A DNA stretch of 64,000 nt. It comes from Candidatus Methylomirabilota bacterium (GTDB lineage Bacteria; Methylomirabilota; Methylomirabilia; Rokubacteriales; CSP1-6). This document shows, one piece after another, positions 33,474 to 54,258 of the stretch. The stretch covers positions 4,833 through 68,832 of the forward strand of contig DASTYT010000006.1 of the NCBI GenBank assembly GCA_035764725.1. Reading direction: 5' to 3'. The notes beneath the pieces were generated by a model. It saw nothing but the letters and a program-made list of their open reading frames with translations, was not told where the DNA came from and made no database searches. A program made the translations under genes and the position numbers. Numbering within the stretch: position 1 is the stretch's first letter; the number at the start of each line of letters is the position of its first letter.

Positions 33474-33685
33474 GCCGCTACGACGTGAACGTGGTGCTGT
33501 ATCGCCTCAAGAAGGATGCGGCGTTCCGCGCGCGCTTCACGCGGGAGCCGGCGGCGGCGCTCGGCCGCGCCGATCTCACCGACGAGGAGCGGGACGCTTT
33601 CGTGCGCTGGGACGTCCGGCGCCTCAACGAGCTGGGCGGGTCACTCCACCTGCTGGTGTCGATCCCGCGCCTGGGCGGGCACTAA
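33470..33685 (+). CDS. LigA-like small subunit (aromatic-ring-opening dioxygenase alpha-subunit domain, 71 aa)
   Basis: VSRYDVNVVLYRLKKDAAFRARFTREPAAALGRADLTDEERDAFVRWDVRRLNELGG resembles the LigA domain. GTG start overlaps the LigB stop. Confidence 0.55.
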   Translation: MSRYDVNVVLYRLKKDAAFRARFTREPAAALGRADLTDEERDAFVRWDVRRLNELGGSLHLLVSIPRLGGH

Positions 33686-35487
33686 ACGGAGTTGCGGTAC
33701 CAGTAGGGGATGCTGGCGAAGATCGAGTCCCACGAGTTGGGCTCGATGCCCATGAGGTTGTTCGCGGCGGCGTGGAGCACGTTGCGCCACGTGATCGGGA
33801 TGATGACGCCGCTCTGGATCACGAGGTCGTTCATTCGGATGAACATCGCCGCGCGCTTCACCGGATCCATCTCGTGCTCGGCCTTCCGCCACAGCGTGTC
33901 GTACTCCGCGTTCCGCCAGCGGCTGACGTTCCGGCCCGTCCACTTGTTCTCCTTGGTGGGGATGAGCCACGAGCAGAACTGCCCCATGAAGCCCTGGGGG
34001 TCGAGGCTCGCGAACGTCGCGTAGGTCTGCATGTCGGCGAGGAAGCGGGTGCGGTTGTCCGGATTCGCCATGTCGCTGGAGAAGAAGATCTGGGACGGGA
34101 TGGCCTTGATCTCGACCTCCACCCCGGCCCGCGCCGCCGCTTGCTTCACCACCGCCTGCACCTTCTGGGTGAGGGCGTGCGCGGTGGCCTGGAACACCAG
34201 GCGCAGCCGCTTGCCGTCCTTCATCCGCACGCCGTCGGCGCCGCGCGCCCAGCCCGCTCGGTCGAGGATCATGTTGGCCTTGTCGACGCTGAACTCCCAC
34301 GTGTTGTTGGAGGATCGGAAGCGGTCGGGGGTGTTCAGGATGTTCACCGCGATCTGGCCGGTGCGCCCGACCAGGTTGTCCTGGATGGCCTGGCGGTCCA
34401 CAAGCAGGCCCACCGCGGTGCGCATCACGGGGTCGCTCAGGAAGGGATGCGGCGCCTTGAGGGCAGAGCGCTCGCCGTCGACCTCGGTCCACGGATCGGT
34501 CTGGTTGAGCTGGATGTGGCTGACCCCGCTCGACGGGATCGTCATCACCCGACCCTTGCCACCCAGCTCGATCCGCTTCAGCACCTCCTCTTCGAGGAGG
34601 ATGTAGTAGGCGAAGTCGTACTCGCCGGTCTGCATCACCGCCCGCGCGGCCCCGGCGGCGTCGCCGCCGCACTTGATCTCGATGCGGTCGAAGAACGGCC
34701 GGTTCGGGACGTAGTAGTTGGGGTTGATCTCCGCGCGGATCACGTCGCCGGGCCGGAACTCGACCAGCTTGTAGGGCCCGGTGCCCACCGGGCGGATCAT
34801 GCCGATGGCCTCCCGCGCGCCCGCGCCCTTGGTGGACTCGAAGACGTGCCGGGGCAGCAGCCCTTCGCCGGTGAAGAAGCCCTGCCAGAAGGGCTGGGGC
34901 TTGCCGAAGTTGACCTTCACCTGGTGCGAGTCGATCTTGTCGATCTTGGAGATCTCCAGATACCCCTCTCGGCTGACCGAGCCGGTCGCGGCGTCGCTGG
35001 CGAACTGCCAGTTGAAGATGACGTCGTCCGCGGTGAACGGGGCGCCGTCGTGCCAGGTCACCCCGCGCTTGAGCTTCCAGATCACCCAGCGGCCGTCCTT
35101 GGCCACCGTGCCCTTCTCGAGCGAGGGCAGCTCGGACGCGAGGACCGGCGTGAACGTCCCGTCCGGCGCCGGGGCGGCCAGCGGCTCGTAGAAGAGCCGG
35201 CTCGCGGTCACGTCGCGGAGCGCGCTGGTGAAGTGGGGGTGGAGCAGGGTCGGCGCGTCCCACATGAGGACGCGGAGCTCCCCCCCGCCGCCGCGCCGGG
35301 TCGGCACGAAGTCCTTGGCCTGGGCGTGGGCGGCTCGCTGCGCCAGTGCCGGGCTCGTGGCGAGCAGCTGAGCCGCCATGGGGGCGGTGAGTCCCATCCC
35401 CACGAGAGTGTGGACGAAAACCCGGCGGGAGAGGCGCCCCCGCTCGACGTCGCGGACCATCCGGCGAAGGCTCTTCTCGATGCTCAT
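33682..35487 (-). CDS. ABC transporter substrate-binding protein, family 5, Tat signal; last gene of the NRPS operon
   Basis: RRVFVHTLVGMGLTAPMAAQLLATSPALA Tat leader followed by a DppA/OppA-like body of 601 aa. Its start overlaps the PPTase stop (ATGA). Confidence 0.8.
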   Translation of the reverse strand: MSIEKSLRRMVRDVERGRLSRRVFVHTLVGMGLTAPMAAQLLATSPALAQRAAHAQAKDFVPTRRGGGGELRVLMWDAPTLLHPHFTSALRDVTASRLFYEPLAAPAPDGTFTPVLASELPSLEKGTVAKDGRWVIWKLKRGVTWHDGAPFTADDVIFNWQFASDAATGSVSREGYLEISKIDKIDSHQVKVNFGKPQPFWQGFFTGEGLLPRHVFESTKGAGAREAIGMIRPVGTGPYKLVEFRPGDVIRAEINPNYYVPNRPFFDRIEIKCGGDAAGAARAVMQTGEYDFAYYILLEEEVLKRIELGGKGRVMTIPSSGVSHIQLNQTDPWTEVDGERSALKAPHPFLSDPVMRTAVGLLVDRQAIQDNLVGRTGQIAVNILNTPDRFRSSNNTWEFSVDKANMILDRAGWARGADGVRMKDGKRLRLVFQATAHALTQKVQAVVKQAAARAGVEVEIKAIPSQIFFSSDMANPDNRTRFLADMQTYATFASLDPQGFMGQFCSWLIPTKENKWTGRNVSRWRNAEYDTLWRKAEHEMDPVKRAAMFIRMNDLVIQSGVIIPITWRNVLHAAANNLMGIEPNSWDSIFASIPYWYRNSV

Positions 35488-36311
35488 TCCCGAGGGCTCC
35501 TCATGAGGGTGGTCCGATCTGGATAGCGTGGCTGCGGGCCGGAGTCAAGAGGCGCCGAAATGTCCCGCTCCGCGGGCGTCCACTCCCAGGCGCGCAGATC
35601 GAAGCGCTCGCCCTCGACCACAAGCGCGCCCAGATGACAGGGAGCCGGGACCAGCTCGCAGAGGCTCCAGCGCTCCACCTCCGCGGGATCTTCCAGCGAG
35701 GAGACCAGCGCGCGCGTCGCCCCGGTGGCGAGCGGGACCTCGAAGTGCTGGAGCGAGAGCGACAGCCCGTCGCCGCGCGCCTTCACGTACGCTTCCTTCC
35801 GCGTCCAGCAGCGCACGAAGGTCGCGGCCCGCTCCTCGGGCGGCGCGGCGAGGAGCGTGTCCACCTCGGCGTGGGCGAAGAAGCGCCGCGCCACGTCCAT
35901 GCCGCTGTGGCCGAGACGAATGCCCTCGACGTCCACGCCCACGCGTCGGCCCTGCGCCACCGCCACCACCGCGCACCAGTCGGCGTGGGTGAGGTTGAAC
36001 TCGAGGCCCTCGGGCGCGGCGAGCAGCGCGGGCTTGCCGTGGGGCGCGCGCACGAAGCGCAGCGTCTCGGGCCGGGCGCCGGCATAGCCGGCGAGGATGC
36101 CGCGCAGCCCGGCCCGGCCCGCCAGGTAGCGCTCGCGGTCGCGCGTGAAGCGGAACCGGCCCGCCCGCTCGCGCTCCTCGGCGGACAGCCGCCGCTCCAG
36201 CGCCAGCCCGTCGGGGATCATCTCGTCGAGGTCGAAGCGCCACACGTGCACCTCGTCGAGCGCGAGAACCGGCGGCGCGTCGGGCCGTACCCAGTGGAGC
36301 GGCACGCTCAT
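35484..36311 (-). CDS. Sfp-type 4'-phosphopantetheinyl transferase
   Basis: GKPALLAAPEGLEFNLTHADWCAVVAV and WTRKEAYVKARG (W/KEA motif). It is coupled by ATGA to NRPS-3 upstream and the SBP downstream. Confidence 0.8.
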   Translation of the reverse strand: MSVPLHWVRPDAPPVLALDEVHVWRFDLDEMIPDGLALERRLSAEERERAGRFRFTRDRERYLAGRAGLRGILAGYAGARPETLRFVRAPHGKPALLAAPEGLEFNLTHADWCAVVAVAQGRRVGVDVEGIRLGHSGMDVARRFFAHAEVDTLLAAPPEERAATFVRCWTRKEAYVKARGDGLSLSLQHFEVPLATGATRALVSSLEDPAEVERWSLCELVPAPCHLGALVVEGERFDLRAWEWTPAERDISAPLDSGPQPRYPDRTTLMRSPRE

Positions 36312-37150
36312 GTGCGCGACGCCTGCTCGAGGCAGGCGCGGAGTCGCTCCGCCGTCGCGCGCACGTGGTGGGTGATCGCGCTGAGATGACCCCCGGGCAC
36401 GGTGTAGGTCGTCACCCGCGAGCAGATGGACGACCAGCCGAAATCAGGGCGTGGATCCTCCGCGTCCGCGGAGCGGAGGACGACGATGCGGCCGCGGTAG
36501 GGCCCGGGGATGTGACGGAGGACGGCGCGCTTGTAGTGCGCGGCGAGGGGGCTGGGCGTCCGCGGCGGCGGGTCGGGCGCGCCATCGAGGGACGCGGCGA
36601 CGTCCGAGCGTCGGCCCCTGGTAACGATTTTCTTCCGCACGATCACGGCCAGGCCACGCAACCACCCGACCGGCCCGCGCCCACCGGCGGTATCCAGCCG
36701 CCCGCGATAGTAGCGGAGCCAGACCGCGACGTCTTGCGCTCGTATGCGCCAGCGGATCAGCCGGTCGTCGCGATTCGCTGCTGGCACACGCAGCACGGCA
36801 TCGACGGCCCGCGCGAGCGCACCCAGCACACGCACGACCCGGGTGGGAGCGACGGCATCGAGCATGACGACGAGCGGCACTTCCGCGCCGCGCCCGCGCA
36901 GGAGGCGGGCGATCTCGAGCGCTACCAGCGCGCCGTTGCAGTGCCCGCCGAGCAGGTACGGCCCCCTCGGCCGAACCGCCAGGATGTCGGAGAGATGAGT
37001 TGCCGCCATCGCTTCGATGGTGTCGGGTATCGCCTTTCCCTGGAGGCTGTGGGGGTGCACCGCGTAGAACGGCTGCTCCAAGCCCGCCGCTTCCGCGAGC
37101 GCGCGAGTGAAGAATCCGCCTCCGTTGAAGACTCCGTGGCAGAAAAAGAG
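36308..37150 (-). other. Thioesterase domain of NRPS-3 with a GxCxG (Cys) nucleophile motif (Cys codon near 36938-36940); boundaries approximate
   Basis: LFFCHGVFNGGG...GPYLLGGHCNGALVALEIARLL aligns with canonical GPYHLGGWSFGG, with C replacing S. Confidence 0.6.
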
Positions 37151-40100
37151 AGGAGGGTGCGCGCCGGCGGGATTCAGAGCGACCACCGGAGGCTCCGACG
37201 TCGCGACCTCGTCGTCGAGGGCCCGGGCAAGATGCTCGATGGTGGGGCCGGTGAAGAGCGTGGTGAGCGGCACCCGACGGCCCCACTCGCGCTCGACGGC
37301 CGCCATCATCCGCGCGGCGAGGAGGGAGTGGCCTCCGAGATCGAAGAAGCTGTCGCGCACCCCGATCCCGGTGACGCCCAGCAGCTCCTCCCAGAGGTCG
37401 ACGAGCGTCCGCTCCGTGGCGTTGCTGGGCTTCACCCGATGCGCCGGCTCACGCGCTCCTTCCGGATCCGGGGCGGGGAGCGCGGCGCGATCCAGCTTGC
37501 CGTTCGGTGTCAGCGGGAGCGCGGGCAGCACGACGACGGCGCCGGGCACCATGAACGCGGGCAAGGTGAGGCGCAGCGCGCTACGGATCTCGGTCGGCCG
37601 CGGGCTCGCGCCGGGCGCGGGCGCGACGTAGGCGACCAGGCGGTGCGCGTCGGAGTCCTCGCCCTCCATCACCACGACGGCGTCGCCCACCTCGGGGAGT
37701 CGGAGGAGCGCTGCCTCGATCTCGTCCGGCTCGATACGATGGCCGCGCAGCTTGACCTGACGGTCGAGGCGACCCAAAAACTCGACCACGCCGTCGGCCC
37801 GGAATCGCGCCCGATCACCGGTACGATAGAGCCGCGCGCCCGGCGTGGCGTCGAACGGATGCGGCACGAAGCGCTCGGCGGTGAGCTCGGGTCGACCCAG
37901 ATAGCCGTCGGCGAGCCCGGGGCCGCCGATGTAGATCTCTCCGACCACCCCCACCGGCACAGGCTCGCGCCGGTCGTCGAGGATGTAGAGCTCGGTATTC
38001 GCGATGGGCCGGCCGATCGGCACTGTCGAGGCGCCCTCGGCCACCTCGCGCACCTCGTGCCACGTGGCGAAGGTGGTGGTCTCGGTGGGCCCGTAGGCAT
38101 TGATCAGCCGCGCGGGCGGCGCGGCCTGCAGCACCGCGCGCACCCACCGGGGCTCAGCTATCTCCCCGCCGAAAAGGACCTGCCGCAGCGGCCGGAAGGC
38201 ATCTGGCGCTTCCCGCGCCACCTGGTTGAAGAGCGATGTGGTGAGGAAGAGCGTGGTCACGCCCTCGCGCGCGAGCGCGCCGGCGAGGGCCCGCGGGGCC
38301 AGCGCGGTGTCGGGCGGGATCAGGACGAGCCGGGCCCCGTTCAGCAGCGCGCCCCAGATCTCGAAGGTGGCGGCGTCGAACGCGGGGTTGGAGACGTGCG
38401 CCACCACGTCGTCGGGGCCGAGCCGGACGTAGTCGGTGTCGCGCACCAGGCGCGCGATCGCGCGATGCGGCACCGCCACGCCCTTGGGGGCGCCCGTGGA
38501 GCCCGAGGTGTACATCACGTAGGCGAGGTCCGCCCCTCCGAGCGGTAGCCCCTCCGCGGTCGGCGCCTCGAGCCCCTCGCCATCGGACGATTCCAGCCGC
38601 ACCTCGGGGCGGGCGTCGCCGCGTCCCGCTCCCGCGGTCACCACGGCGACCGCGCCCGCGTCGTCGAGCAGCGCGGTGCGGCGCTCCGCGGGGTGGGAGG
38701 GATCGAGGGGCACATAGACGCCGCCCGCGGTCAGCACGCCGAGCAGCGCGACCGCCAGCTCGATGGAGCGGTCGCAGCACACGCCGACGCGCGCGCCGCG
38801 GCCCATCCCGAGGTCTCGCAGCCGGCGCGCCAGGCGGCGGGCGCGTCGTTCCAGCTCCACGTACGTGATTGTCCGCGCGCCATCCGTGACCGCCACCGCG
38901 TCGGGCGTCCGGGCGACGTGCTCGGCGAAGAGCGCCGGGAGCGACCGGTCGGCCGGGTACGGTGAGCGCGTGGCGTTCCACTCCACCAGGACACGGTGAC
39001 GCTCGGCTTCACCGAGGAGCGGCAGCTGCGAGAGGGGGCGATCGGCGTCGCGGGCGATCTCCTGGAGCAGCCGCCCGAATTGGGCGACCAGGTCCTCCGC
39101 AGTGGCGCGGTCGAAGAGCGCGGAGCAGTACTCGAGGGTGCCCCGAAGCCCCTCGGGCGCCTCGACGAGGATCAGCGAGTAGTCGACCTTGGCCGTGCCC
39201 TGGTCGAGGTGGAACGGCGTGATCTCGAGGCCGGCGAGGGCGAGAGGAGTACGGGGCGCGTTCTGCAGCGCCAGGATGGCCTGGAAGACGGGATTGCGGC
39301 TCGCATCGCGCGCTGGGCGGAGCGTCTCCACCAGCCGCTCGAAGGGAACCTCGGCGTTGGCGAAGGCGCCCAGCGCGGTGTCTCGGGTGCGCCGGAGCAG
39401 CTCGCAGAAGGTCGGATCCCCCGCGAGCTCGCCGCGCAGCACCACGGTGTTGGCGAAGAAGCCGATCAGCCCCTCGAGCTCGGTGCGGGGGCGGCCGGCG
39501 ATCGGCGACCCGATCAGGACCTCGTCCTGCCCGGCGTGACGCGCCAGGAGCACCTGGAAAGCCGCGAGGAGCGTCATGTAGAGGGTGGCGCCTTGCCGCC
39601 GCGCGAGCGCGCGGAGCCCCTCGGTGACGTCACGGCTCACCGTGATCGCGACGACGCCTCCCACGAAGCTCTGGACCGCCGGCCGCGGCCGGTCCATGGG
39701 CATCGTGAGCGCCGCCGGCGCGCCGGCGAGCCGCTCCGTCCAGTACGCGAGCTGCGCCTGGAGTTCCGCGCCGCCGAGGCGGTCGCGCTGCCACACCGCG
39801 TAGTCACCGTACTGCAGGGGAAGGGGCGGCAGCGTGGGCGCCCGGCCCGCGCGGAGCGCGGCATAGGCGGTCTCGAGCTCGCGGGCCAGCACGCCCATCG
39901 ACCATCCGTCGGAGATCAGGTGGTGAAGCGTGACGACGAGGAGGTGCTCGTCGTCGCTCCGGCGGAAGAGCCGCGAGCGGATCAGCGGCCCGCGCGCGAG
40001 GTCGAAGACCTGGCTCCCCTCGCGGACGGCCGCGCGCTCGAGCGCCGCGTCGTCGCCGTCGGGCCACGGGTCCACGGGCAGCGCGAACGCCCCGACGGAG

Positions 40101-40438
40101 GTGATGCGCTGACGCGGCTCCCCGTCCTCGACGACGATGCCGGTGCGGAGCGCCTCGTGGCGATGGACGACCACCTCGAAGCTCCGGCGCAGCGCCTCCA
40201 CGTCGAGGCGGCCGCGGAGCCGCGCCGCCAGCGGGATGTGGTACACCGCGCTGTCCGGCACGAGCTGGTGCAGGAACCACAGGCGCTGCTGGGGTGCGGA
40301 GAGCGGCACCGGCGCCGCGGGATCCCGGCGCGGCAGCGCGCTCCGCGTGCCCGGCGCGCCCGCGAGCAGCTTGGCCTCGAGACGCTGGCGCTCCTCGGGT
40401 GTCAGCGTCGACGCCCGGCGTGGCGCCCGCTCGGCCAT
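36308..40438 (-). CDS. NRPS-3: termination module C-A-T-TE
   Basis: C-domain HHxxxDG motif (LHHLISDGWSMGV). A-domain motifs (YTSGSTGAPKGV, GRLDRQVKLRGHRIE). T-domain FFDLGGHSLLA. TE domain with GPYLLGGHCNGALVALE. 1376 aa. Confidence 0.9.
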   Translation of the reverse strand: MAERAPRRASTLTPEERQRLEAKLLAGAPGTRSALPRRDPAAPVPLSAPQQRLWFLHQLVPDSAVYHIPLAARLRGRLDVEALRRSFEVVVHRHEALRTGIVVEDGEPRQRITSVGAFALPVDPWPDGDDAALERAAVREGSQVFDLARGPLIRSRLFRRSDDEHLLVVTLHHLISDGWSMGVLARELETAYAALRAGRAPTLPPLPLQYGDYAVWQRDRLGGAELQAQLAYWTERLAGAPAALTMPMDRPRPAVQSFVGGVVAITVSRDVTEGLRALARRQGATLYMTLLAAFQVLLARHAGQDEVLIGSPIAGRPRTELEGLIGFFANTVVLRGELAGDPTFCELLRRTRDTALGAFANAEVPFERLVETLRPARDASRNPVFQAILALQNAPRTPLALAGLEITPFHLDQGTAKVDYSLILVEAPEGLRGTLEYCSALFDRATAEDLVAQFGRLLQEIARDADRPLSQLPLLGEAERHRVLVEWNATRSPYPADRSLPALFAEHVARTPDAVAVTDGARTITYVELERRARRLARRLRDLGMGRGARVGVCCDRSIELAVALLGVLTAGGVYVPLDPSHPAERRTALLDDAGAVAVVTAGAGRGDARPEVRLESSDGEGLEAPTAEGLPLGGADLAYVMYTSGSTGAPKGVAVPHRAIARLVRDTDYVRLGPDDVVAHVSNPAFDAATFEIWGALLNGARLVLIPPDTALAPRALAGALAREGVTTLFLTTSLFNQVAREAPDAFRPLRQVLFGGEIAEPRWVRAVLQAAPPARLINAYGPTETTTFATWHEVREVAEGASTVPIGRPIANTELYILDDRREPVPVGVVGEIYIGGPGLADGYLGRPELTAERFVPHPFDATPGARLYRTGDRARFRADGVVEFLGRLDRQVKLRGHRIEPDEIEAALLRLPEVGDAVVVMEGEDSDAHRLVAYVAPAPGASPRPTEIRSALRLTLPAFMVPGAVVVLPALPLTPNGKLDRAALPAPDPEGAREPAHRVKPSNATERTLVDLWEELLGVTGIGVRDSFFDLGGHSLLAARMMAAVEREWGRRVPLTTLFTGPTIEHLARALDDEVATSEPPVVALNPAGAHPPLFFCHGVFNGGGFFTRALAEAAGLEQPFYAVHPHSLQGKAIPDTIEAMAATHLSDILAVRPRGPYLLGGHCNGALVALEIARLLRGRGAEVPLVVMLDAVAPTRVVRVLGALARAVDAVLRVPAANRDDRLIRWRIRAQDVAVWLRYYRGRLDTAGGRGPVGWLRGLAVIVRKKIVTRGRRSDVAASLDGAPDPPPRTPSPLAAHYKRAVLRHIPGPYRGRIVVLRSADAEDPRPDFGWSSICSRVTTYTVPGGHLSAITHHVRATAERLRACLEQASRT

Positions 40439-43400: not shown

Positions 43401-45447
43401 GGCGCGCGCCCGCCAGCAGCGGCGCCCAGAACTCCCAGACCGATGCGTCGAAGCCGATCGGGGTGCGCTGGAGGACGGCATCGGCCTCGGTGAGGGGGAG
43501 CGTGTCTGCCATCCAGCGCATGTGGTTCACGATGGCGCGATGGGGGATCATCACGCCCTTGGGACGGCCGGTGGAGCCGGACGTATAGAGGATGTAGGCG
43601 AGCGCCTCGGGCTCGGCGTCGGGCTCGAGCGCCTCGGCCGCTGTCCGCGCAATCTCCTCGGCATCGGTGGAGGGGCAGACCACGCGGACGCCGGACTCGG
43701 CGAGCCGCGGGCCCAGCGCGGCGTCGGTGATCACCACCGGCGCGGTCGCGTCCGCGAGCATGAAGCGCAGGCGCTCCGTGGGGAGAGCCGGATCGAGGGG
43801 CAGGTATGCCCCGCCGGCCTTGAGCACGGCATAGAGCGCGACGGGGAGATCGAGCGACGGGCCCATGCAGACGCCCACGGGCACGTCGGGCCCCACGCCG
43901 AGCACGCGGAGATAGCGCCCGAGCGCGCCCGCCCGAGCCTCGAGCTGCCCGTAGGTGAGGGTGTCGCGCCCCGCGACCACCGCCACCGCGTCAGGGGAGG
44001 TCGCCGCGCGCGCTGCGACGAGGCGGTGCAAGCACGCCTTCGGGGCCTCCGCCGGCGCGGTCTCCGCGGAGGCGCCGCTCCAGGACTCGAGGCGCGCCGT
44101 CTCCTCGGCGGTCAGCAAGGGGAGCTCCGAGAGGCGCCGGTCGGGATCGGTCACCGCGCCCTCGAGGAGCCGCGTGAAGTGGGCGAGCAGCCGCTCGATG
44201 GTCGCGCCGTCGAAGAGGTCGGTGCTGTAGTCCGCAATGAGCTGGAGCCCCGTCGCGCTTTCCACCGCCGTCAGGGAGAGGTCGAACTTCGCCGTCCCGT
44301 TTCGCGCCCGCAGCGGCGTGGCGGTGAGCCCGGAGAGGCGAGGCATTCCGGAGAGTGCGGCCTCCTGCAGCACCAGCATGACCTGCACGATGGGCGAGCG
44401 GTCGCGGCGGCGCTCGGGCGCCAGCGCAGCGACCAGGCGCTCGAAGGGCAGCTCCTGATGCCCCAGGGCCTCGCGGGACACGCGCGACGCTTGACGCAAG
44501 AGCTCCCGGAATGTCGGATCGCCGTCGAGCGCCATCCGTAGGGGCAGCGTGTTGACGAAGTAGCCGATCAGCGGCTCGACTTCGCGCAGGATCCGGCAGG
44601 CGCTGGCCGTTCCCACGACGAGATCGGTCTCGCCGGTGTAGCGGTGCAGGAGCGCCTGGAAGGCGGCGAGCAGCACCGCGAAGGGGGTCACGCGCTCGGC
44701 CCGTGCGAGCGCCCTCACCACGCTCACGTGCTCGGACGGCAGGAGTCGCGTGCACTGATTTCCGCCGTCGCCCAGCTCGGCGGGGCGCGGGTGGTCGGTG
44801 GGCAGCGCGAGGGCAGGCGGCGCTCCCGCCAGCTGTTGGCGCCAGTAGCTGATCTCGTCGGCGAGCCGTTGCCCGGCCAGCCGGGCGCGCTGCCACGCGG
44901 CGTGATCCGCGTACTGCACGGGCAGCGGCGGCAGCGTGGCGATGTCGCCCGTGACCGCCGCCGAGTAGTGCGCCTCGAGCTCACGCATGAGCACGCCCAC
45001 GGACCAACCGTCAGAGGCGATGTGGTGGAGGACGAGGAGCAAGGCGTGCTCGCGTTCACCCAGCCGCGCGACGAGGGCCCGCAGCATGAGGTCGCACGTG
45101 AGGTCGAACGAACGGCGGGCCTCCGCGGTGAGCTGGGCTTCGAGAGCCGCCTCGCGGGCGTCTTCGGGCAGGCCCGTGAGATCCACGTACGTCACCTCGA
45201 CGGGTCTGGGTGGCCCGACCATCTGCACGGGCTCTCCGTCGGTCTCGTGGAAGGTCGTGCGCAGAGCCTCGTGGCGCGCCACGATCGCGGTGAGCGCGCT
45301 CTCGAGCGCGGTGAGGTCGAAGTCGCCGGCGAGGCGGAACGCCTTGCCCATGTTGTAAGCGGGCGAGCCGGGGCGCAGGCGGTCCACGAGCCAGAGCTGC
45401 TGCTGCGCGAAGGAGAGCGGGGAGGGCGGGCGACTGGCGAGACTCAT
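40438..45447 (-). CDS. NRPS-2: C-A-T followed by an in-line AMP-binding (AAE3/MatB-like acyl-CoA-ligase-type) domain and a second carrier domain (C-A-T-AL-T)
   Basis: The real start MSLASRPPSPLSFAQQQLW overlaps the NRPS-1 stop (ATGA at 45444-45447). The 432 upstream codons of the track ORF are out-of-frame readthrough of NRPS-1. Motifs: LHHIASDGWS, YTSGSTGRPKGV, FFAIGGHSLLA, then HTSGTTARPKVV...MPLFHVQGL...MINRGGEKISPREVDD, then FVALGGDSLQA. Confidence 0.85.
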   Translation of the reverse strand: MSLASRPPSPLSFAQQQLWLVDRLRPGSPAYNMGKAFRLAGDFDLTALESALTAIVARHEALRTTFHETDGEPVQMVGPPRPVEVTYVDLTGLPEDAREAALEAQLTAEARRSFDLTCDLMLRALVARLGEREHALLLVLHHIASDGWSVGVLMRELEAHYSAAVTGDIATLPPLPVQYADHAAWQRARLAGQRLADEISYWRQQLAGAPPALALPTDHPRPAELGDGGNQCTRLLPSEHVSVVRALARAERVTPFAVLLAAFQALLHRYTGETDLVVGTASACRILREVEPLIGYFVNTLPLRMALDGDPTFRELLRQASRVSREALGHQELPFERLVAALAPERRRDRSPIVQVMLVLQEAALSGMPRLSGLTATPLRARNGTAKFDLSLTAVESATGLQLIADYSTDLFDGATIERLLAHFTRLLEGAVTDPDRRLSELPLLTAEETARLESWSGASAETAPAEAPKACLHRLVAARAATSPDAVAVVAGRDTLTYGQLEARAGALGRYLRVLGVGPDVPVGVCMGPSLDLPVALYAVLKAGGAYLPLDPALPTERLRFMLADATAPVVITDAALGPRLAESGVRVVCPSTDAEEIARTAAEALEPDAEPEALAYILYTSGSTGRPKGVMIPHRAIVNHMRWMADTLPLTEADAVLQRTPIGFDASVWEFWAPLLAGARLVIGPAGAHRDPGELARVLAEQEITVLQLVPSLLRALLDEPGLDGARVLRRVCCGGEALTGELAERCLARLPVELINLYGPTEATIDATWWRCGGGETSVPIGRPIAGMRAWVLDASGQPVPPGVAGELHLGGVGLARGYLNRPELTAERFVPDPRSPESGARLYRTGDRARWRADGVLEYLGRLDHQVKLRGMRVELGEVEAVLAGHPAVREAVVTVREDAGDGYLAAWVVLRPEARLDRETLRHFLAEQLPVPMIPRAVVTLDALPLTPHGKVDRGALPDPGEHDLLRTAMREAPATPLEQALAQMWTELLGVTEIGRHDDFFAIGGHSLLAARLASRLRERLGVDVPLRRIFEAPILSNLAEAILEGQLKDDPAAEGTPTADAMPVAAPTLRTLIEAQALRAPDAPAITAPGAAPLCYRDLLTQVDEVLAVLATWGLGRGDRIALIMPQGPQLAVAFVAVALGATAVPLNPAYREPELERYLTTARVGAVMVPAGAAPAARVVAARLGLPLLEVEPRPGGAGRFALGPHLPATPSPVNSPRPDDVALAIHTSGTTARPKVVPLTHANMAAAIQGFVQTYALRPNDRALGVMPLFHVQGLMVVLTSLAAGASVICTPAFDPTAVFDWMEATRPTWYSAVPTIHQAIVAEAPQHPHVVAGHALRFIRSSAAPLPPALMAELERRLGVPVIEGYGQSESCMLVTSNPLPPGERRAGSVGRPVTGEVAIVDEDGGATRTGEVGEIQVRGKTVMTGYENDSAANAAAFRDGWYRTGDLGRFDADGYLYVTGRIKEMINRGGEKISPREVDDVLVAHPAVARAVTFSVPHPTLGEDVAAALVLRPGSCATEADIRRFVSDRLAAFKVPRQLAFVDSIPLGATGKPERRELAAALSRPETPTGSGSAAPALTAIEAQVAKVWSGVLGRPVGVADDFVALGGDSLQAAVAAAHMADALGVTVPLNQFLEAPTVAAVAAHIAARLGPSAGASG
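40680..42300 (-). other. In-line ANL-superfamily domain of NRPS-2 (oxalate/malonate-CoA-ligase-like); boundaries approximate
   Basis: TSGTTARPK, PLFHVQGL and INRGGEKISPREV motifs resemble the AAE3/MatB clade rather than NRPS A-domains (compare YTSGSTGRPKG in the same proteins). Confidence 0.55.
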
Positions 45448-48400
45448 GCCGTCACCTCCGCCGCGACGGCGTGGGCGAGCGCGGCTCGATCCGGCTTGCC
45501 GGCGGGCCCGCGGGGGATCTCGCTCACGAGCAGGATGTGCCGCGGCACCTTGAACGCCGACACGCGCTCGGCGGCGAACCGGCGCAGGTCGGTGGGCATC
45601 AGCGCGGCGCCGTCCACCAGCACCACCGCGGCCGCGACGTCCTCGCCGAGCGTGCGGTGCGGGACGCCGAAGGTCACCGCTTCGCGCACTGCCGGATGGG
45701 CAAGCAGGATCTCCTCGACCTCGCGCGGCGCGACCTTCTCGCCGCCGCGGTTGATGATCTCCTTGAGCCGGCCCGTGATGAAGAGAAAGCCGTCCGCGTC
45801 GAGGTGGCCGAGGTCGCCGGTGCGATACCAGCCGTCGTGAAAGCTCGCCGTGGTGGTCCCGGGATCGTCCTCGTAGCCAGCCATGACGTTGACCCCACGC
45901 ACGAGGATCTCGCCGCGGCTCCCCGGGGCAAGCGGGCGGCCGTCGGGATCGATGATCGCGATCTCGGGGCCCGCGCTCACCCCCGCGGATCCCGTCTTGC
46001 CGGCGCCCCGTGCCAGCGGCGTCACCGCCACGAGGGTGGCCGTCTCGGTCTGGCCGTAGCTCTCGATGACGGGCGCGGCGAAGAGCCGCTCCATCTCCTC
46101 GCGCAGCCGCGGAGGCAGCGCGGACGAGGCGGAGCGGACGAAGCGGAGGCCGACGCGCGCGGCAATCGGGGCGGCGCTCCCCCGCTCCAGGGCGGCCTGG
46201 CCGAGTATGCCTTGATGGACGGTCGGCGTGCCATTCACCCAGGTCGGGCGGGTCTCGTCGAGCCATGCGAAGACGTGGGCTGCCTCGAAGCGCGGCGGGC
46301 ACACCACGGCGGATCCGGCCCCGAGTGAGGCGATGAGCATCATGAGGCCGTTGACGTGGAAGAGTGGCATGAGGTCGAGGCAGCGGTCGCCGGGCCGAAG
46401 CGCCAGCGCCTGCCGGTGCCCCCGTGCGGAGGCGAGGATCTGGCGGTGGCTCAAGGGCACCCGCTTCGGCCGCGCGGTGGTGCCGGACGTCAGGAGCACC
46501 AGGGCGATGTCGTCGTGGCCCCGTGCGGCCGGAGCGGCCCCCGTGGCGGGCAGGGGCAGGTCCAGCGCGATGGCGCCCGCAGGCCCCGCCGACGCGCTCT
46601 GGATCGCGATCGCGGGCAGCCCTCGCCGGCGCGCCACCCCGAGGGCGGGAGCACCGGCGGGGGCGAGGAGGGCGTCGAGCGGCGTGGTCGCGAGGATCGC
46701 CTCGATTTCGGGCGGGGGCGCCGCGGGATTCAACGGCACGCACACCGCCGCCGCTGCCACCGCGAGGATCGCGACCGCCGCCTCCGGTCCCTGCGGCGCC
46801 ACGATCGCGATGCGCGCGCGGCCACCCAGCCCCGCTCCAGCGAGTCGCTGCGCCGTATCGTCGACGTGGGCCAGCAGGTCCCGATACGAGAGAGGCGTCC
46901 GCCCCGGCGCGACGATCGCCGCCGCGGTCGGCGCGTGGCGCGCGTGTGCCTCGAGGAGGTCGCGGAGCGTCGAGGCCTCGTCCGCGGATGGTGCGTCCGC
47001 CTCGTCGTCGCGGTCCCCGCGCTCGCCTGCCCCGCCGAGCCCCTCGGGGCTGGCCTCGATCTCGAGCAGGGCGAGGGCCAGGTCGGCGATGGTCGAGTTG
47101 TCGAAGATCTGGCGGAGCGGGATCTCGACACCGAGACGGTCGCGCAGGCGCGCCACCAGCCGGGCGGCGAGGAGCGAATGGCCGCCGAGATCGAAGAAGT
47201 CGTCGAGGATGCCGATCCGGGCGGCTCCCAGCACGTCCGACCAGATCTCGACCAGCATGGCCTCGAGGGGCGTGCGGGCCGCCACATGGGCGGGTGCGCC
47301 GACGGCATCATCGGGCCCCGGCGCGGGAAGCGCGTCGCGGTCCAGCTTGCGATTGGCGGTGAGGGGCAGCGCGGACATGGGCACGAACGCCGCGGGCACC
47401 AGATGAGCGGGGAGGAGCTGACGCGCGAATTGCCGGAGGGCCGCGCGGTCGACCGCCGCGGCGCCGTGCGCCACCACGTAGGCGGCGAGGCGCTGATCGC
47501 CGGGGTGGGGCTCCCACGGCAACACCGCGACCTCGCGGACGGCGGGGTGCTGACGCAGCACGCTTTCCGCCTCGCCGGGCTCGGTGCGGATGCCGCGGAT
47601 CTTGATCTGTCGATCGATGCGCCCCAGGAAGTCGAGCGTGCCGTCGGCACGGGCCCGCGCGAGGTCGCCGGTCTTGTAGAGCCGGCCGCCGGCCGCGTGA
47701 GGATCGGCCACGAAGCGCGCCGCGCTGAGGGCGGGATCGCCCATGTAGCCCGATGCCACGCCGACGCCGCCGATGTAGAGCTCGCCGGGCACGCCGGCCG
47801 GCACGGGGCCGAGCGCCGCATCGAGGATGAGCGCCGACACGCCGGCGATGGGCCGTCCGATCGGCACCGCGCCCTCGGCCTCGGGGGCCGTGTCGACACG
47901 ATGGAACGTGCAGGTCATCGTACACTCGGTAGGCCCGTACTGGTTGACGAAGGCCGCATGCGGGCAGAGATGCCGTATCGCGCGGCGCACGTCGTCGTAC
48001 AGGAGCGGCTCGCCCGTGGTCAGCACGAGCCGCAAGGTGGACGCGGCGAGCCCGCGATCCTCGGCGGCGCCGGTGAGGGGCCGCAGCACCGACGGGACAA
48101 GCGCGAGCAGCGCGGTCGCCTCGTGGGCTCGCAGCCGCTCGAGGATGGCCTCCGGGTCCGCGGCCTCGCCGTCCCGCAATAGCACGACGCGCGCGCCCAC
48201 GGCGAGGGGGGCGAAGAACTCGCGCACCGAGGCGTCGAAGGACGCGCGCGCGAGCTGGAGGACCACGTCGGTGGATCGCAGCCCGAACGTCTCCGTGAGG
48301 AACTCGAGATAGCTCAGCACGGCCCGGTGGACGATCGGTACGCCCTTCGGGACGCCGCTCGAGCCCGACGTGAACGCGACATAGGCCAGGTCATCGAGCC

Positions 48401-51400
48401 CCGGACGCGGGAGTGACGCGCCGTCGTCGCCGGTCCCCGGCATCGCGTCCCGGTCGAGGCAGAGCGTGGGATGTCCCTGGCTCGTGCAGCGGGACTCCAG
48501 ATCGGATCGGGTCAGGACACAGCACGCATCGACGGTCTGGAGGATGTGACCGAGGCGGGTCGCCGGCTCGTCGGGGTCCAGGGCCACGTAGGGCGCGCCC
48601 GCACGCATCACGCCGAGGAGCGCCGCCACCAGGTCGGGAGAGCGCCCGAGACACACGCCCACCGGCCGGCCGGGTCCGGCGCCGCGGGCGCGGAGGAGCC
48701 GCGCGAGATGCTGGGCGCGCGCGACGAGCGCCGCGTAGGTGAGGGATGCCTCGCCCTGTACCACCGCGATCGCCTCGGGGGTACGCATGCCCTGGGCTTC
48801 GACGAGGGCGGGCACGCTGGGCGCCCGCGGAGCCGGCGCGTGGGGACCGCGACCGCGGGCGACGAGCGTCGCGCGCTCGGGCGCGGGCACCAGCGAGATC
48901 TCGTCGAGCCGGCGGTCAGGGTCGGCGGCGGCATGCTCGAGCACTGACGCGAACTGGGCGAGCAAGGCGGTCATGGTCTCGGGCTCGAAGAGGTCCGTGT
49001 CGTACGTGAGCGAGCCGCTGATTCCCGCCGCTGACTCGTCGAGGCCCAGGTTGAGGTCGAACTTCGCCCCCCCGCCGAAGAGTCCCATCGGCGTGAGGGA
49101 GAGCCGATCGAGCCGGAGCGGCGAGGCGGGCTGATTGTGCAGATTGATGAAGGCGGTCACGATGGGCGCGGTGGGCCCGCCGCGGTTCGGCCGCAGCGCC
49201 TCGACGAGCTTCTCGAACGGCAGCTCCTGATGGGCGTAGGCGTCGAACGCAGTGGCCCGCACTCGCGCGAGGAGCTCCCGGAAGGTCGGCCGGTTCGCGC
49301 AATCCACCCTGAGCACGAGGGTGTCGAGGAACAGACCGATGAGGCCTTCGGTCTCCGGTCTCGAACGGCTGGCCATCGGGGCGCCGATGAGAAGATCGGT
49401 CTGGGCCGTGCGCCGGTGCAGGAGCAGCGAAAAGCCGGCGAGGAGGGTCATGAACAGCGTGGCGCCCTCGCGCCGGGCCAGCGCACGCAGCGCCGCCGCC
49501 ACACCCGGGGACAGCGCGAACGGCAGTCGCCTGCCGCGGCCGCGCGGCCGCGCGGGCCGCGGATGGTCCGTGGCGAGGGCAAGCGAGGGCGGTGCGCCGG
49601 CCAGGCGCGCGCGCCAGTGGGTGAGAAGCGGCTCGAGGGCGCCCCCCTCCATCCGCTCCCGCTGCCACGCCGAATAGTCGGCGTACTGGATGGCGAGCGG
49701 TGGCGCCGTGGGGCGGCGCCCGGCCAGGGCGGCGCGATAGCCCGCGGAGAGCTCTCGCGCGAACACATCCATCGACCACCCATCGCTCATGATGTGGTGC
49801 ATCGTGGCGAGGAGGACGTGTTGCTCGGCACCGAAGCGCAGGAGGCGGCAGCGCCAGAGGGGCCCGTGCTCGAGGTCGAAGTGGCGGTGGGCCTCCTCGG
49901 CGGTGAGCCGGTCCGCCTCGAGCTCGCGCGCGGCGGCATCGAGCGGCTCGAGATCCGTGGCCTCGAACGGGACGCTCAGACGGGGCGCCACGCTCTGCCA
50001 CGCGCGTCCGTCACGGCCGACCAGCGACGTGCGCAGGATCTCGTGCCGCTCGGTGAGCCACTCGAGCGCGTGGGCCAGCGCGCCCGCGTCGAGGGGGCCG
50101 GTGATGCGCCAGCCGGTCGCAATGTTGTAGTCGGAGCGCCCGGGATCCAGCTGATCGAGGAACCAGAGCCGCTCCTGGGCGAACGAGGCCGGGAAGAGAT
50201 CGCCCGTCCCGGAGCGAGGCAAGCGGGGGATGGGGGCGACGGCGGGCCGCAGCGTCACGTCGCGCGGCGCGCTCTCGATCGCGTGGGCGAGCCCGGCGAC
50301 GGTGGGGCGCTCGATGAAAGCGGGCAGCGAGATATCGACGTCCCACGCCGTGCGGACGCGGGCAAGCACGAGGGCAGCGAGCAGCGAGTTGCCTCCGAGA
50401 TCGAAGAAGTCGTCCTCGACCCCCACGTCGTCGACGCCGAGCACGGCGGCCCACACCCGGGCGATCTCGTTTTCCCGGGGCGTCCGGGGGGCCAGCCGCG
50501 TCGTCGGGCCGGACTCGGCGCGGCCCGCGAGAGGTAGAGGCAGGGCGCGGCGGTCGATCTTGCCATTGCCGTCCACGGGTAGGCGATCGAGGACGATCAA
50601 GGCGGAGGGCACCATCACGTCGGGGAGCCGTGGCGCGAGGGCGCGTCGGAGCTCGCTCGCGTTGAGGGTCCGGGTAAGCTGCGGGACCAGGTAGGCGACG
50701 AGCCGCGCCGCGCCCGGCTCGTCCTCGCGTACGAGCACGACCGCCTCGGCTACCCCGGAAAGGGCGAGCAGCGCGGCCTCCACCTCCGCGACCTCGACCC
50801 GTTGCCCGCGCACCTTGCTATGCCCGTCGCGCCGACCGAGCATCTCGAGCATCCCGTCCGCGCGGAGACGGCCGAGATCGCCGGTCCGATACAGGCGCGT
50901 GTCCGGCCGGCCGGGCTCCGCGACGAAGCGTGCCGCGGTGAGCGCGGGTTGCTTCCAGTAGCCCATGGCGAGGTACGCGCTGCGCACTGCGATCTCGCCC
51001 GTCTCGCCGGCCGCGACCGGGCGGCCGCCCTCGTCGAGCAGCACGACCTCCATGTCCTCCACCGGAGCGCCGATCGGCACCACGCCCTCGGGAACGGGCT
51101 CGCGCGCGGCAAAGAAGAACTGGCGCACGAGGCCGCACTCCGTCGCCCCGAGCCCGTTGACGAGCACGCAGTCAGGCCCGAAGCGCTCACGGAACAAGGC
51201 GAGGTCGCTCGGGGTCGCGCGATCGCCCTCGAGTCGGACCACGCGGAGGGCAGGCAGAGGGCGCCCGGAGCCGGCCGCCAGGCGGAAGAGCGCGGGCACC
51301 GAGTGATAGATGGTGATGGCCTCGGCGGCGAGCCATTCGGCGATGCGCTGCCCGCCGTCGCGCGCCACGTCGAAGGGGAAGACGGCGGCGCCGTTCAGCA

Positions 51401-52100
51401 GGGCGCCGAACAAGCTCGAGACCGCCCCGCTGAAGGTCGGCCCCTGCAGCAGCGTGAGGCGATCGTCCGCGCAGAGGTGCAGCGTGTTCGTGTAGCGCAT
51501 GATGTTGTGCAGCACGTTGCGATGCGTGTCGACCACGCCCTTGGGCCGGCCGGTCGAGCCGGAGGTGTAGAAAATGTACGCGCCCGCGTCCGGCGCGACG
51601 TCCACCGTCGGAGGCGTGTCGGCGCCGAGCGCGCCGCGGGCGTCGAGCGCCAGCACCTCCGCCCGGGGCGCCGCCCGGCGCGCGAGGTCCGCGTGCGCGG
51701 CCAGCGTCAGCACGAGCCGCGCCTCCGCATCACCGATGGCGTCGGCGAGCCGCGCCTCGGGGTGCGTGGGATCCAGCGGCACGTAGATCGCGCCTGCCTT
51801 GAGCGCGCCGAGCACCGCGGTGACCTGACCCACGCTCTGCGGCAGGAGCAAGACCACCGGCTCGTTGCCCCCGCCGAGCCGGTCGAGCACGGCGTGCGCG
51901 ACGCGGTTGGCGGCCTGATCGAGGGCCTCATAGGTCAGTCGCTCCGCGCCCATCGTCAGGGCGAGGCGGCCGGGGTGGCGGGCGACCTGCTCGGCGAATC
52001 GCGCCGTGAGCGAGCCCTCGAGAGCCGCCCGCGGGAACGGAACGAACGGGTTGGTCGGTCTCCCGTCGGGGCCGGGGCAGGATCGTGGCGATGCCGTCAT
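45444..52100 (-). CDS. NRPS-1: initiation module A-T, elongation module C-A-T, and a C-terminal in-line AMP-binding (AAE3/MatB-like) domain with no carrier of its own (A-T-C-A-T-AL)
   Basis: 2218 aa. No N-terminal C domain. Motifs in order: FYTSGSTGRPKGVV; FFDLGGNSLLA; MHHIMSDGWSMDVF; FTSGSSGVPKGV; FFDLGGHSLLA; then LLTSGTTARPKRV...MPLFHVNGL...IINRGGEKVAPREVEE...AFKVPRHILLV, ending 3 aa before the stop. Confidence 0.85.
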   Translation of the reverse strand: MTASPRSCPGPDGRPTNPFVPFPRAALEGSLTARFAEQVARHPGRLALTMGAERLTYEALDQAANRVAHAVLDRLGGGNEPVVLLLPQSVGQVTAVLGALKAGAIYVPLDPTHPEARLADAIGDAEARLVLTLAAHADLARRAAPRAEVLALDARGALGADTPPTVDVAPDAGAYIFYTSGSTGRPKGVVDTHRNVLHNIMRYTNTLHLCADDRLTLLQGPTFSGAVSSLFGALLNGAAVFPFDVARDGGQRIAEWLAAEAITIYHSVPALFRLAAGSGRPLPALRVVRLEGDRATPSDLALFRERFGPDCVLVNGLGATECGLVRQFFFAAREPVPEGVVPIGAPVEDMEVVLLDEGGRPVAAGETGEIAVRSAYLAMGYWKQPALTAARFVAEPGRPDTRLYRTGDLGRLRADGMLEMLGRRDGHSKVRGQRVEVAEVEAALLALSGVAEAVVLVREDEPGAARLVAYLVPQLTRTLNASELRRALAPRLPDVMVPSALIVLDRLPVDGNGKIDRRALPLPLAGRAESGPTTRLAPRTPRENEIARVWAAVLGVDDVGVEDDFFDLGGNSLLAALVLARVRTAWDVDISLPAFIERPTVAGLAHAIESAPRDVTLRPAVAPIPRLPRSGTGDLFPASFAQERLWFLDQLDPGRSDYNIATGWRITGPLDAGALAHALEWLTERHEILRTSLVGRDGRAWQSVAPRLSVPFEATDLEPLDAAARELEADRLTAEEAHRHFDLEHGPLWRCRLLRFGAEQHVLLATMHHIMSDGWSMDVFARELSAGYRAALAGRRPTAPPLAIQYADYSAWQRERMEGGALEPLLTHWRARLAGAPPSLALATDHPRPARPRGRGRRLPFALSPGVAAALRALARREGATLFMTLLAGFSLLLHRRTAQTDLLIGAPMASRSRPETEGLIGLFLDTLVLRVDCANRPTFRELLARVRATAFDAYAHQELPFEKLVEALRPNRGGPTAPIVTAFINLHNQPASPLRLDRLSLTPMGLFGGGAKFDLNLGLDESAAGISGSLTYDTDLFEPETMTALLAQFASVLEHAAADPDRRLDEISLVPAPERATLVARGRGPHAPAPRAPSVPALVEAQGMRTPEAIAVVQGEASLTYAALVARAQHLARLLRARGAGPGRPVGVCLGRSPDLVAALLGVMRAGAPYVALDPDEPATRLGHILQTVDACCVLTRSDLESRCTSQGHPTLCLDRDAMPGTGDDGASLPRPGLDDLAYVAFTSGSSGVPKGVPIVHRAVLSYLEFLTETFGLRSTDVVLQLARASFDASVREFFAPLAVGARVVLLRDGEAADPEAILERLRAHEATALLALVPSVLRPLTGAAEDRGLAASTLRLVLTTGEPLLYDDVRRAIRHLCPHAAFVNQYGPTECTMTCTFHRVDTAPEAEGAVPIGRPIAGVSALILDAALGPVPAGVPGELYIGGVGVASGYMGDPALSAARFVADPHAAGGRLYKTGDLARARADGTLDFLGRIDRQIKIRGIRTEPGEAESVLRQHPAVREVAVLPWEPHPGDQRLAAYVVAHGAAAVDRAALRQFARQLLPAHLVPAAFVPMSALPLTANRKLDRDALPAPGPDDAVGAPAHVAARTPLEAMLVEIWSDVLGAARIGILDDFFDLGGHSLLAARLVARLRDRLGVEIPLRQIFDNSTIADLALALLEIEASPEGLGGAGERGDRDDEADAPSADEASTLRDLLEAHARHAPTAAAIVAPGRTPLSYRDLLAHVDDTAQRLAGAGLGGRARIAIVAPQGPEAAVAILAVAAAAVCVPLNPAAPPPEIEAILATTPLDALLAPAGAPALGVARRRGLPAIAIQSASAGPAGAIALDLPLPATGAAPAARGHDDIALVLLTSGTTARPKRVPLSHRQILASARGHRQALALRPGDRCLDLMPLFHVNGLMMLIASLGAGSAVVCPPRFEAAHVFAWLDETRPTWVNGTPTVHQGILGQAALERGSAAPIAARVGLRFVRSASSALPPRLREEMERLFAAPVIESYGQTETATLVAVTPLARGAGKTGSAGVSAGPEIAIIDPDGRPLAPGSRGEILVRGVNVMAGYEDDPGTTTASFHDGWYRTGDLGHLDADGFLFITGRLKEIINRGGEKVAPREVEEILLAHPAVREAVTFGVPHRTLGEDVAAAVVLVDGAALMPTDLRRFAAERVSAFKVPRHILLVSEIPRGPAGKPDRAALAHAVAAEVTA
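45447..47050 (-). other. C-terminal in-line ANL domain of NRPS-1 (oxalate/malonate-CoA-ligase-like); boundaries approximate
   Basis: The TSGTTARPKRV motif lies near 46470-46500. The domain runs to the C-terminus with no following T domain. Confidence 0.55.
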
Positions 52101-52275
52101 AGGTCAACCGTGGTGGCGACTATCTAATGAAATCGGCATGCCAAGGTCAACCCGCAGGCAAACGGCGAGAATCCATCGCATTTTCGCCCATGTAGGTCTT
52201 GCGCTGTGAAGACTGTCAAGCGTGCCGACAGCGAGGCTTGCCGGGCGCCGGGCGCAGAGCTAGAGTGCCGAGTGG
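52101..52275. promoter_or_regulatory. Divergent promoter region between NRPS-1 and the GAF histidine kinase; AT-richer than its surroundings, with a direct repeat AGGTCAACC (52101-52109 and 52144-52152)
   Basis: Local drop in GC (tatctaatgaaatcggcatgcc, catcgcattttcgcccatgtaggtctt). The repeat is seen directly. Confidence 0.4.
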
Positions 52276-54242: not shown

Positions 54243-54258
54243 CGGGGTCGGGACCGCC

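Follow-up and report, generated by a model that had tools for sequence, protein, structure and literature searches.

The A1S_0112-A1S_0119 operon of A. baumannii is polycistronic and makes acinetin 505, a lipopeptide-like compound (PMC5376624). In the Cys-type thioesterase (TE) of SulM, the catalytic Cys lies within a Gln-Cys-Asn motif (PMC11298585). Here, we compare these and other described systems with a nonribosomal peptide synthetase (NRPS) locus on a 64,000-nt stretch of DNA from a Candidatus Methylomirabilota bacterium (Rokubacteriales; assembly GCA_035764725.1, contig DASTYT010000006.1, positions 4,833 to 68,832 of the forward strand), hereafter the window, whose numbering is used throughout. 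Rokubacteria are abundant uncultured soil bacteria from which, to our knowledge, no natural product has been characterised, and literature searches on Rokubacteria NRPS clusters and on NRPS domains resembling oxalyl-coenzyme A (CoA) synthetases find nothing specific. The Acinetobacter operon encodes an acyl ligase, a carrier protein, the NRPS AB3403, and a phosphopantetheinyl transferase (PPTase). Another point of reference is the double chain-initiating NRPS of icosalide, whose internal starter-type condensation (C) domains take acyl thioesters and so admit an acyl unit partway along the line.

Five open reading frames (ORFs) on the minus strand extend across 33682-52100 at the coordinates given in an earlier sequence-only reading, and Pfam calls agree with the identities that it proposed: three NRPSs, a PPTase, and a family-5 solute-binding protein (SBP). 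The four overlapping junctions that it described are also exact—i.e. ATGA, TGATG, ATGA, and ATGA, found in GGCATGAGT, GGGCTGATGG, CACATGAGC, and GGAATGAGC, respectively. Based on the comparisons below, 35484-52100 is probably a vertically inherited Rokubacteria NRPS cluster with a dedicated PPTase, next to an SBP that is maintained independently. The genes are as follows:

45444..52100, minus strand, NRPS1, 2218 aa, A1-T1-C1-A2-T2-CAL1 (whole-protein and segment-wise Pfam, NCBIfam)
40438..45447, minus strand, NRPS2, 1669 aa, C2-A3-T3-CAL2-T4 (Pfam, NCBIfam)
36308..40438, minus strand, NRPS3, 1376 aa, C3-A4-T5-TE (Pfam, segment scans)
35484..36311, minus strand, Sfp/HetI-type PPTase, 275 aa (Pfam, NCBIfam)
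33682..35487, minus strand, family-5 SBP with a twin-arginine signal, 601 aa (Pfam SBP_bac_5)

Together, the three NRPSs contain four amino-acid adenylation (A) domains, two domains of the acyl-CoA-ligase type (CAL), five carriers (T), three C domains, and one TE. The count of four A domains in the sequence-only reading thus has to be raised to six adenylate-forming domains once both types are included. Specifically, PF00501 with PF13193 is matched six times across the three proteins, and A1 scores above the TIGR01733 cut-off of NCBIfam. The domains of NRPS1, those at the end of NRPS2, and the TE of NRPS3 lie at the following positions:

50526-52028, minus strand, A1, approximate span in NRPS1
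50256-50483, minus strand, T1, approximate span in NRPS1
48846-50213, minus strand, C1, approximate span in NRPS1
47331-48818, minus strand, A2, approximate span in NRPS1
47046-47273, minus strand, T2, approximate span in NRPS1
45447-46988, minus strand, CAL1, C-terminus of NRPS1 (residues ~1705-2218)
40723-42225, minus strand, CAL2, approximate span in NRPS2 (residues ~1075-1575)
40441-40680, minus strand, T4, approximate span in NRPS2
36311..37171, minus strand, TE with a Cys nucleophile in GGHCNG, read from the sequence

The catalytic motifs are complete, with GGxS in the five PF00550 carriers (GGNS, GGHS, GGHS, GGDS, and GGHS), HHxxxDG in the C domains (HHIMSDG in C1, HHIASDG in C2, and HHLISDG in C3; PF00668, E 1e-94 to 1e-105), and the ANL core in both CALs. 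The line is not colinear, as six activating domains stand against five carriers and three C domains rather than one carrier per activating domain in C-A-T order. The closest matches of C1, C2, and C3 are the elongation C domains of the teixobactin synthetases Txo1/Txo2. C2 and C3 were also considered as CAL-fed, starter-type C domains, but this idea is not supported: the first C of PvdL and chains of the surfactin synthetase, including one that we take to be a starter C, match much more weakly. The window has no MbtH-like ORF. A siderophore assignment failed, as domain calls on the NRPSs give no Cy domains, and no genes for siderophore chelating groups, receptors, or transporters are found between the RNase P RNA gene (rnpB) and LigAB.

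Related loci were gathered through searches with the SBP, NRPS2, CAL2, and A1, and ~10 of these were compared. Approximately eight, all metagenomic, have NRPS and PPTase genes in one shared chromosomal position, with rnpB on one side and the SBP gene on the other. L010 (86.6% nucleotide identity over window 32621-52233) and L091 (85.6%) encode all three proteins of the full cluster, while L007 and L001 have it at 77% nucleotide identity and are both partial. L088 also has the full cluster, at ~70% amino acid identity and with gene calls broken by frameshifts; its SBP lies downstream of the NRPS, and no PPTase is assignable. NRPS1 has an orthologue of equal length and domain order (P0243), and the orthologue of NRPS2 is P0248. 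The C-A-T-CAL-T order is shared only by L010 within the searched genome collection. Matches to NRPS2 of ~5 kb—e.g. L072 from Streptomyces—were rejected as cases of the same architecture, given that L072 is an ordinary A-T-C-A-T. The L010 contig (DATJFY010000108.1) is labelled as a Verrucomicrobiia metagenome-assembled genome, yet ~20 kb of it is syntenic with the Rokubacteria window, so the bin or the label is probably wrong.

L092 and L120 (GC content 73%, A1 62-67% identical) have a shorter version of the cluster, encoded by a single ORF of ~3600 aa. Its domains run A1-T1-C1-A2-T2-CAL-C-A4-T5-TE, the PPTase and then the SBP come next, and the NRPS2 unit is wholly missing. An even smaller cassette of an A1-like domain, a carrier, and a Cys-TE is found on unrelated metagenome contigs with GC contents of 0.39-0.69 (L094, L095, L099, L109-L111, L113, L116, L119, and L124), and in L109, L110, L111, and L119 a PPTase follows it. 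The Rokubacteria cluster looks like such an A-T-TE cassette with modules inserted between the carrier and the TE.

The presence of the block varies among relatives. In L008, 553 nt stand where the window has 35550-54754, a block that excludes the SBP, and across the NRPS-less loci (L003-L006 and L008/L009) 450-550 nt take the place of ~19-22 kb. A neighbour-joining tree of the SBPs, with + and - denoting the presence and absence of the NRPS, reads (L089+, ((window+, L010+), (L003-, (L008-, (L007+, L001+))))). NRPS-bearing loci are therefore basal and found on both sides of the NRPS-less ones, which favours ancestral presence with two losses over three gains at the same site. Searches for remnants of the NRPS, the PPTase, and an upstream histidine kinase (described below) in L003 and L008 give only marginal matches (E 0.06-0.08), and as such the case for loss rests on the SBP tree. 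Overall, this is a genuine cluster of unusual architecture that appears to be vertically inherited and sometimes deleted.

The history of the SBP differs from that of the NRPS genes. Intact orthologues with 80-81% identity and the same downstream genes (LigA/LigB, MPG, cyclase, TauD, and enoyl-CoA hydratase) are found without NRPS or PPTase in L003-L006, where the order is rnpB, a 108-aa ORF, and the SBP, and in L008 and L009, where it is GroES, GroEL, a 126-aa ORF, and the SBP. Furthermore, SBPs of 65-74% identity are extremely numerous in Rokubacteria, and the two that were inspected sit in unrelated contexts without NRPS. The window SBP has an identical counterpart in a Methylomirabilota (Rokubacteria) metagenome-assembled genome. 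Its N-terminus (MSIEKSLRRMVRDVERGRLSRRVFVHTL) contains a twin-arginine motif, RLSRRVFV, that is kept in relatives. No specific ligand class is indicated by NCBIfam or the PDB; every NCBIfam score falls well short of its cut-off, that for NikA being 112 bits against a cut-off of 393.

As the sequence-only reading had noted, the neighbouring genes include no permease or ATPase of the Opp/Dpp type, nor is there an adjacent importer of the Opp/Dpp/Nik type, in which the SBP is accompanied by a pair of permeases and at least one ATPase (one or two). The nearest ABC genes, at 23702-27564 (minus strand), form an importer operon of another type that encodes an ATPase with TOBE, a fused double permease, and its own SBP_bac_1/6 protein; L089 also has this operon, and L003, L007, L008, and L001 lack it at this position. 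Between MPG and LigB, a gene for a thiamine-diphosphate enzyme (30742-32568, minus strand) is also found in L007 and L008, and is absent from L003, L001, and L010. The earlier view that nothing resembling the locus occurs elsewhere in the window needs to be qualified for the SBP, as a second orphan family-5 SBP is encoded at 1027-2574; it opens a plus-strand stretch (1027-6356) that continues with hydantoinase/oxoprolinase A and B genes and has no adjacent permease.

One element is found upstream of the SBP in all nine loci compared for it:

35515..35549, minus strand, promoter-like element CTTGACTCC-N13-GCTATCCAGATCG (TTGACT, 17 nt, TATCCA), 61 nt upstream of the SBP ATG

Its consensus, CTTGAC[T/A]C-N16/17-GCTATC, is located 58-90 nt upstream of the SBP start in 9/9 loci, with or without NRPS. 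The PPTase genes of L010, L007, L001, and L092 end at the TGA within TTGAC, leaving PPTase-SBP gaps of 55-87 nt in these four NRPS-bearing loci. In the window and in the L089/L120 lineage, the PPTase frame crosses the element in two further frames and ends in the ATGA overlap with the SBP, which is found only in these two lineages and whose reading frame in L089/L120 differs from that in the window; in the window, the last ~20 PPTase codons read through the element. In L003 and L008, the element is present without a PPTase gene. Conservation irrespective of the reading frame indicates a signal at the DNA level, most simply the SBP's own promoter. The overlap with the PPTase stop in the window lineage would then arise because the PPTase frame runs through this element.

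The sequence-only reading saw the SBP as the integral last gene of the operon, and the comparison does not support this, given the orthologues without NRPS, the SBP's own element, the 55-87 nt gaps, and the abundance of its family. An overlap or a very short gap kept among relatives, as expected of a single operon, is not what we find for this gene. The SBP is probably a conserved neighbour rather than a dedicated component of the cluster. Read-through from the PPTase could still lead to co-transcription in some lineages, and the NRPS and SBP may be functionally linked. A terminator consensus scan between the PPTase and the SBP gives no calls. More generally, tight adjacency and a stop/start overlap made a resident gene look like an operon member here, and this overlap varies by lineage, which calls for caution.

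Specificity positions of the A domains were read against a GrsA fragment, with a control that gave the expected DAWTIAAICK, and Stachelhaus codes could be extracted for A1-A4. For A1, the positions read SGSHREGLVK and Asp235 is missing, which suggests that its substrate is not an alpha-amino acid but another carboxylic acid. The A2 code, DARALTQMTK, could not be assigned to a known code. The A3 code (DAWQCGLIDK) differs at one position from what we take to be the Gln code, and that of A4 (DAFFLGATFK) is near what we presume to be Ile/Val codes. The TE Cys is kept in all relatives and in the stand-alone A-T-TE proteins, and the best solved match of this domain is AB3403 (4zxh; motif GGWCFGG, E 5e-11). 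The PPTase matches PF01648 and PF22624 (ACPS and AASDHPPT_N) in Pfam and the HetI model of NCBIfam at E 2e-51, below the equivalog cut-off. Its VGVDVE and WTRKEAYVK motifs are present, and it has the two lobes and the WxxKEA of Sfp-type enzymes. The earlier proposal of a real NRPS cluster with its own PPTase is supported, and the NRPS and PPTase block varies in presence among close relatives.

CAL1 and CAL2 are 51% identical to each other, whereas their identity to A1-A4 is only 26-31% (28-31% for CAL1). In NCBIfam, both match best to a FadD7-family fatty-acid-CoA ligase (E 2e-117 and 5e-125, respectively), and their best PDB matches are the oxalyl-CoA synthetases 6qjz and 5ie0 (E ~1e-92). NRPS1 stops a few residues past the A10 lysine of CAL1 and no carrier domain follows, while CAL2 is followed by its own carrier, T4. 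The position of CAL1 is kept in L010, L091, L088, L092, and L120, and in the short version a linker of ~40 residues joins the carrier-less CAL to the next C domain. Finding T-CAL-C in both the long and the short versions indicates that the arrangement is old and conserved, and not an accident of this genome. CAL1 probably either borrows T2, the carrier next to it, or sets free acyl-AMP or acyl-CoA. By comparison, CAL2-T4 followed by C3 looks like a standard acyl-loading unit set within the line.

An exhaustive HMMER profile search with CAL1 was used to survey CALs embedded in NRPSs, as a word-indexed protein search with CAL2-T4 missed the window NRPS2 and its orthologues, and CAL counts from that search are unreliable. 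CAL-type ligases are common in NRPSs, mostly as an N-terminal CAL-T-C loading module, and CAL-T-C-A-T is the order in many of the proteins whose CAL domains are nearest. Other arrangements include C-CAL-T elongation-type modules (P0246 and P0354), CAL-CAL-T-TE (P0244), CAL-CAL-T-C (P0245), and four tandem CALs followed by T-C-A-T-TE with a Cys TE, where only the last CAL precedes a carrier (P0241). L087, from an unrelated lineage with a GC content of 0.53, has A-T-CAL-T and then a protein that starts with a C domain. A free-standing ligase-carrier-condensation protein (P0129) is also found in the cyanobacterium Stigonema ocellatum (L171, 10001-13201), with no other NRPS gene nearby.

From these data, we propose the following scheme. 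The PPTase would convert the five carriers to their holo form, and A1 would load a carboxylic acid other than an alpha-amino acid on T1. C1-C3, all of the ordinary elongation type, would add the A2 substrate, a Gln-like residue (A3), and an Ile/Val-like residue (A4). CAL1 and CAL2 would activate a small carboxylic acid for addition to the chain, CAL2 by way of its own T4 and CAL1 by sharing T2 or by making free acyl-AMP or acyl-CoA, and the Cys-type TE would release the product. In the short version, which looks ancestral, the product would be one module smaller.

Several observations weigh against parts of this interpretation. The scheme does not account for the role of the carrier-less CAL1. 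The main difficulty is that there is no C domain between T3 and CAL2-T4, so that a strictly colinear reading gives one acyl unit no obvious step by which to join the upstream chain. In addition, the substrate assignments of the A domains, which depend on the GrsA anchor and on code tables, are tentative. For the SBP, a sigma-70 consensus scan did not call the upstream element, whose second hexamer (TATCCA) is weak, and the element could be a binding site for a regulator instead of a promoter. Lastly, the NRPS-PPTase-SBP adjacency holds down to ~73% SBP identity, with a true ATGA overlap in two lineages.

This adjacency gives weight to the model of the sequence-only reading, in which the SBP is dedicated to the cluster and serves in periplasmic recapture or signalling of the peptide or a fragment of it. 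NRPS-less loci that keep the SBP would then belong to cheaters that go on importing the public good. The PPTase and SBP genes are neighbours in every NRPS locus with a visible junction (window, L010, L007, L001, L089/L120, and L092), truly overlapping in the window and L089/L120, the SBP is predicted to be exported by the twin-arginine route, and no gene for a cognate permease lies close by. Cheaters are known to give up biosynthesis while keeping the receptor. The SBPs kept where the NRPS was lost also fit this pattern, and the functional link is therefore weakened rather than refuted. Adjacency carries little information, however, where the whole neighbourhood is syntenic (dnaG-rpoD-rnpB ... 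LigAB-MPG-TauD). This model also has to contend with the conserved element and gaps upstream of the SBP, the many related SBPs in contexts without NRPS, and an SBP that resembles no characterised ligand class specifically. Moreover, in other lineages, the stand-alone A1-like-T-TE(Cys)-PPTase cassettes never have an SBP after them. Overall, we regard a dedicated SBP as unlikely, though it is the strongest competitor to an independently maintained neighbour. Far less probable is a recent, horizontally acquired island beside the SBP, as the "self-contained island" of the sequence-only reading may be understood. Its absence from L003-L006 and L008/L009 would fit, as would the GC content of the NRPS and PPTase genes (0.735-0.739), which exceeds that of the flanks (0.68-0.71; ~71% for the window). 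Such an excess is nonetheless usual for NRPS genes rich in Ala/Gly/Arg/Pro codons, the same site is occupied in relatives with only 62-67% amino acid identity, and the SBP tree requires three site-identical gains in place of two losses. The neighbouring genes include no integrase, no tRNA lies at the boundary (the only one is 6 kb beyond it), and no flanking repeats were seen in a search that was not systematic. A cluster present in the ancestor and lost twice is thus the better account of the block.

The remaining alternatives concern the CALs. That they are relics without a role, on a line that makes a capped tetrapeptide, would explain why CAL1 lacks a carrier and why no C domain precedes CAL2-T4. 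We consider this very doubtful, since both CALs still carry every ANL core motif, the A10 lysine among them, the CAL1 position is kept across 60% to 86% identity even in the single-ORF version, and an identity of only 51% between CAL1 and CAL2 argues that each has long been maintained. It is somewhat less doubtful, but still improbable, that a carrier-less CAL between a carrier and the next C domain constitutes a new kind of in-line NRPS step, the product being a pseudo-peptide with small-acid linkers. Under this idea, several ligase domains might share one carrier, or the second carboxyl of a tethered small di-acid might be activated, so that the chain would continue through a non-peptide bridge. 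Neither option displaces our preferred reading, in which the CALs would activate a small acid for addition to the chain.

The region upstream of NRPS1 also varies among relatives. Its features in the window are as follows:

52276-53613, plus strand, GAF histidine kinase (Pfam)
53610-54242, plus strand, receiver-LuxR regulator (Pfam)
54211-54726, plus strand, receiver-only protein (Pfam)
57734..58144, minus strand, RNase P RNA, rnpB (Rfam RF00010, 288.6 bits)
60815-60890, minus strand, tRNA-Met

The kinase and the LuxR-type regulator (52276-54242) are indeed divergent from the locus, as first described, but the suggestion that they could control it is not supported. In the window, rnpB and NRPS1 stand 5.5 kb apart, and the segment between them (52234-57724) carries the kinase, two response regulators, GroEL, and GroES. 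By contrast, rnpB is located immediately upstream of NRPS1 in L010, L091, L092, and L120, and forms a conserved edge of the cluster in relatives. For the same reason, co-inheritance of the kinase and regulators with the NRPS, considered as both are missing in L003 and L008, was rejected. The order in L120 (dnaG-rpoD-tRNA-CT398...rnpB-NRPS) matches the backbone of window 57.7-64 kb, with no two-component system within 10 kb upstream. In L010, the kinase sits past rnpB and a methyltransferase gene, and its location on the other side of rnpB indicates that this small region was rearranged more than once. As they are missing beside NRPS1 in these relatives, the kinase and regulators do not accompany the cluster in a conserved manner. 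The two-component system would have arrived with the GroESL block in the window lineage only; a dedicated regulator may exist, but these comparisons lend it no support.

Compared with known systems, the SBP shares its SBP_bac_5 fold family and export signal with OppA/DppA/NikA, but unlike the proteins of those systems it is one of very many orphan SBPs in Rokubacteria. The TE shares Cys-Asn with SulM but reads His-Cys-Asn, and neither the SulM nor the ObiF1 TE is found among its PDB sequence matches at E <= 0.01; for these reasons, we do not extend to it the strained-ring chemistry of those enzymes, which yields a beta-lactam or beta-lactone. The CALs are nearest to oxalyl-CoA synthetases and not to fatty-acyl-AMP ligases, with AAE3 and Pcs60 (5ie0, 6qjz, and 8aff) as the best solved full-length matches of both. 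These enzymes are free-standing CoA ligases of primary metabolism, and their substrate is not transferable to the CALs at this distance. CAL2-T4 followed by C3 has the same order as the AL/CAL-T-C loading modules of the PvdL type (PDB 9lcq), which hand an acyl group to the first amino acid. The window differs in that its ligases are internal, behind an A-T pair, and that CAL1 lacks a carrier. Relative to the icosalide NRPS, the C domains are elongation-like and acyl activation is built in as ligase domains.

The in-line small-acid ligases, an A1 without Asp235, and a Cys TE suggest chemistry beyond the standard peptide pattern. The cluster is compact (~16.6 kb including the PPTase) and also exists in a one-gene form, which makes both realistic for synthesis and heterologous expression. 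Its closest documented functional analogue is the acinetin 505 operon, although the relationship is distant. NRPS3 has the C-A-T-TE order and the Cys-type TE of AB3403/A1S_0115 (4zxh), yet C3 matches 4zxh at E 7e-38, against 1e-120 for Txo2. The ligase and carrier are separate in Acinetobacter and fused in line in the window, where three further modules and a ligase without a carrier are present; nothing in the block corresponds to the genes for an efflux pump and an acyl-CoA dehydrogenase in the Acinetobacter operon. Set beside these systems, the locus is an unusual variant of an NRPS cluster, and not a new kind of system.

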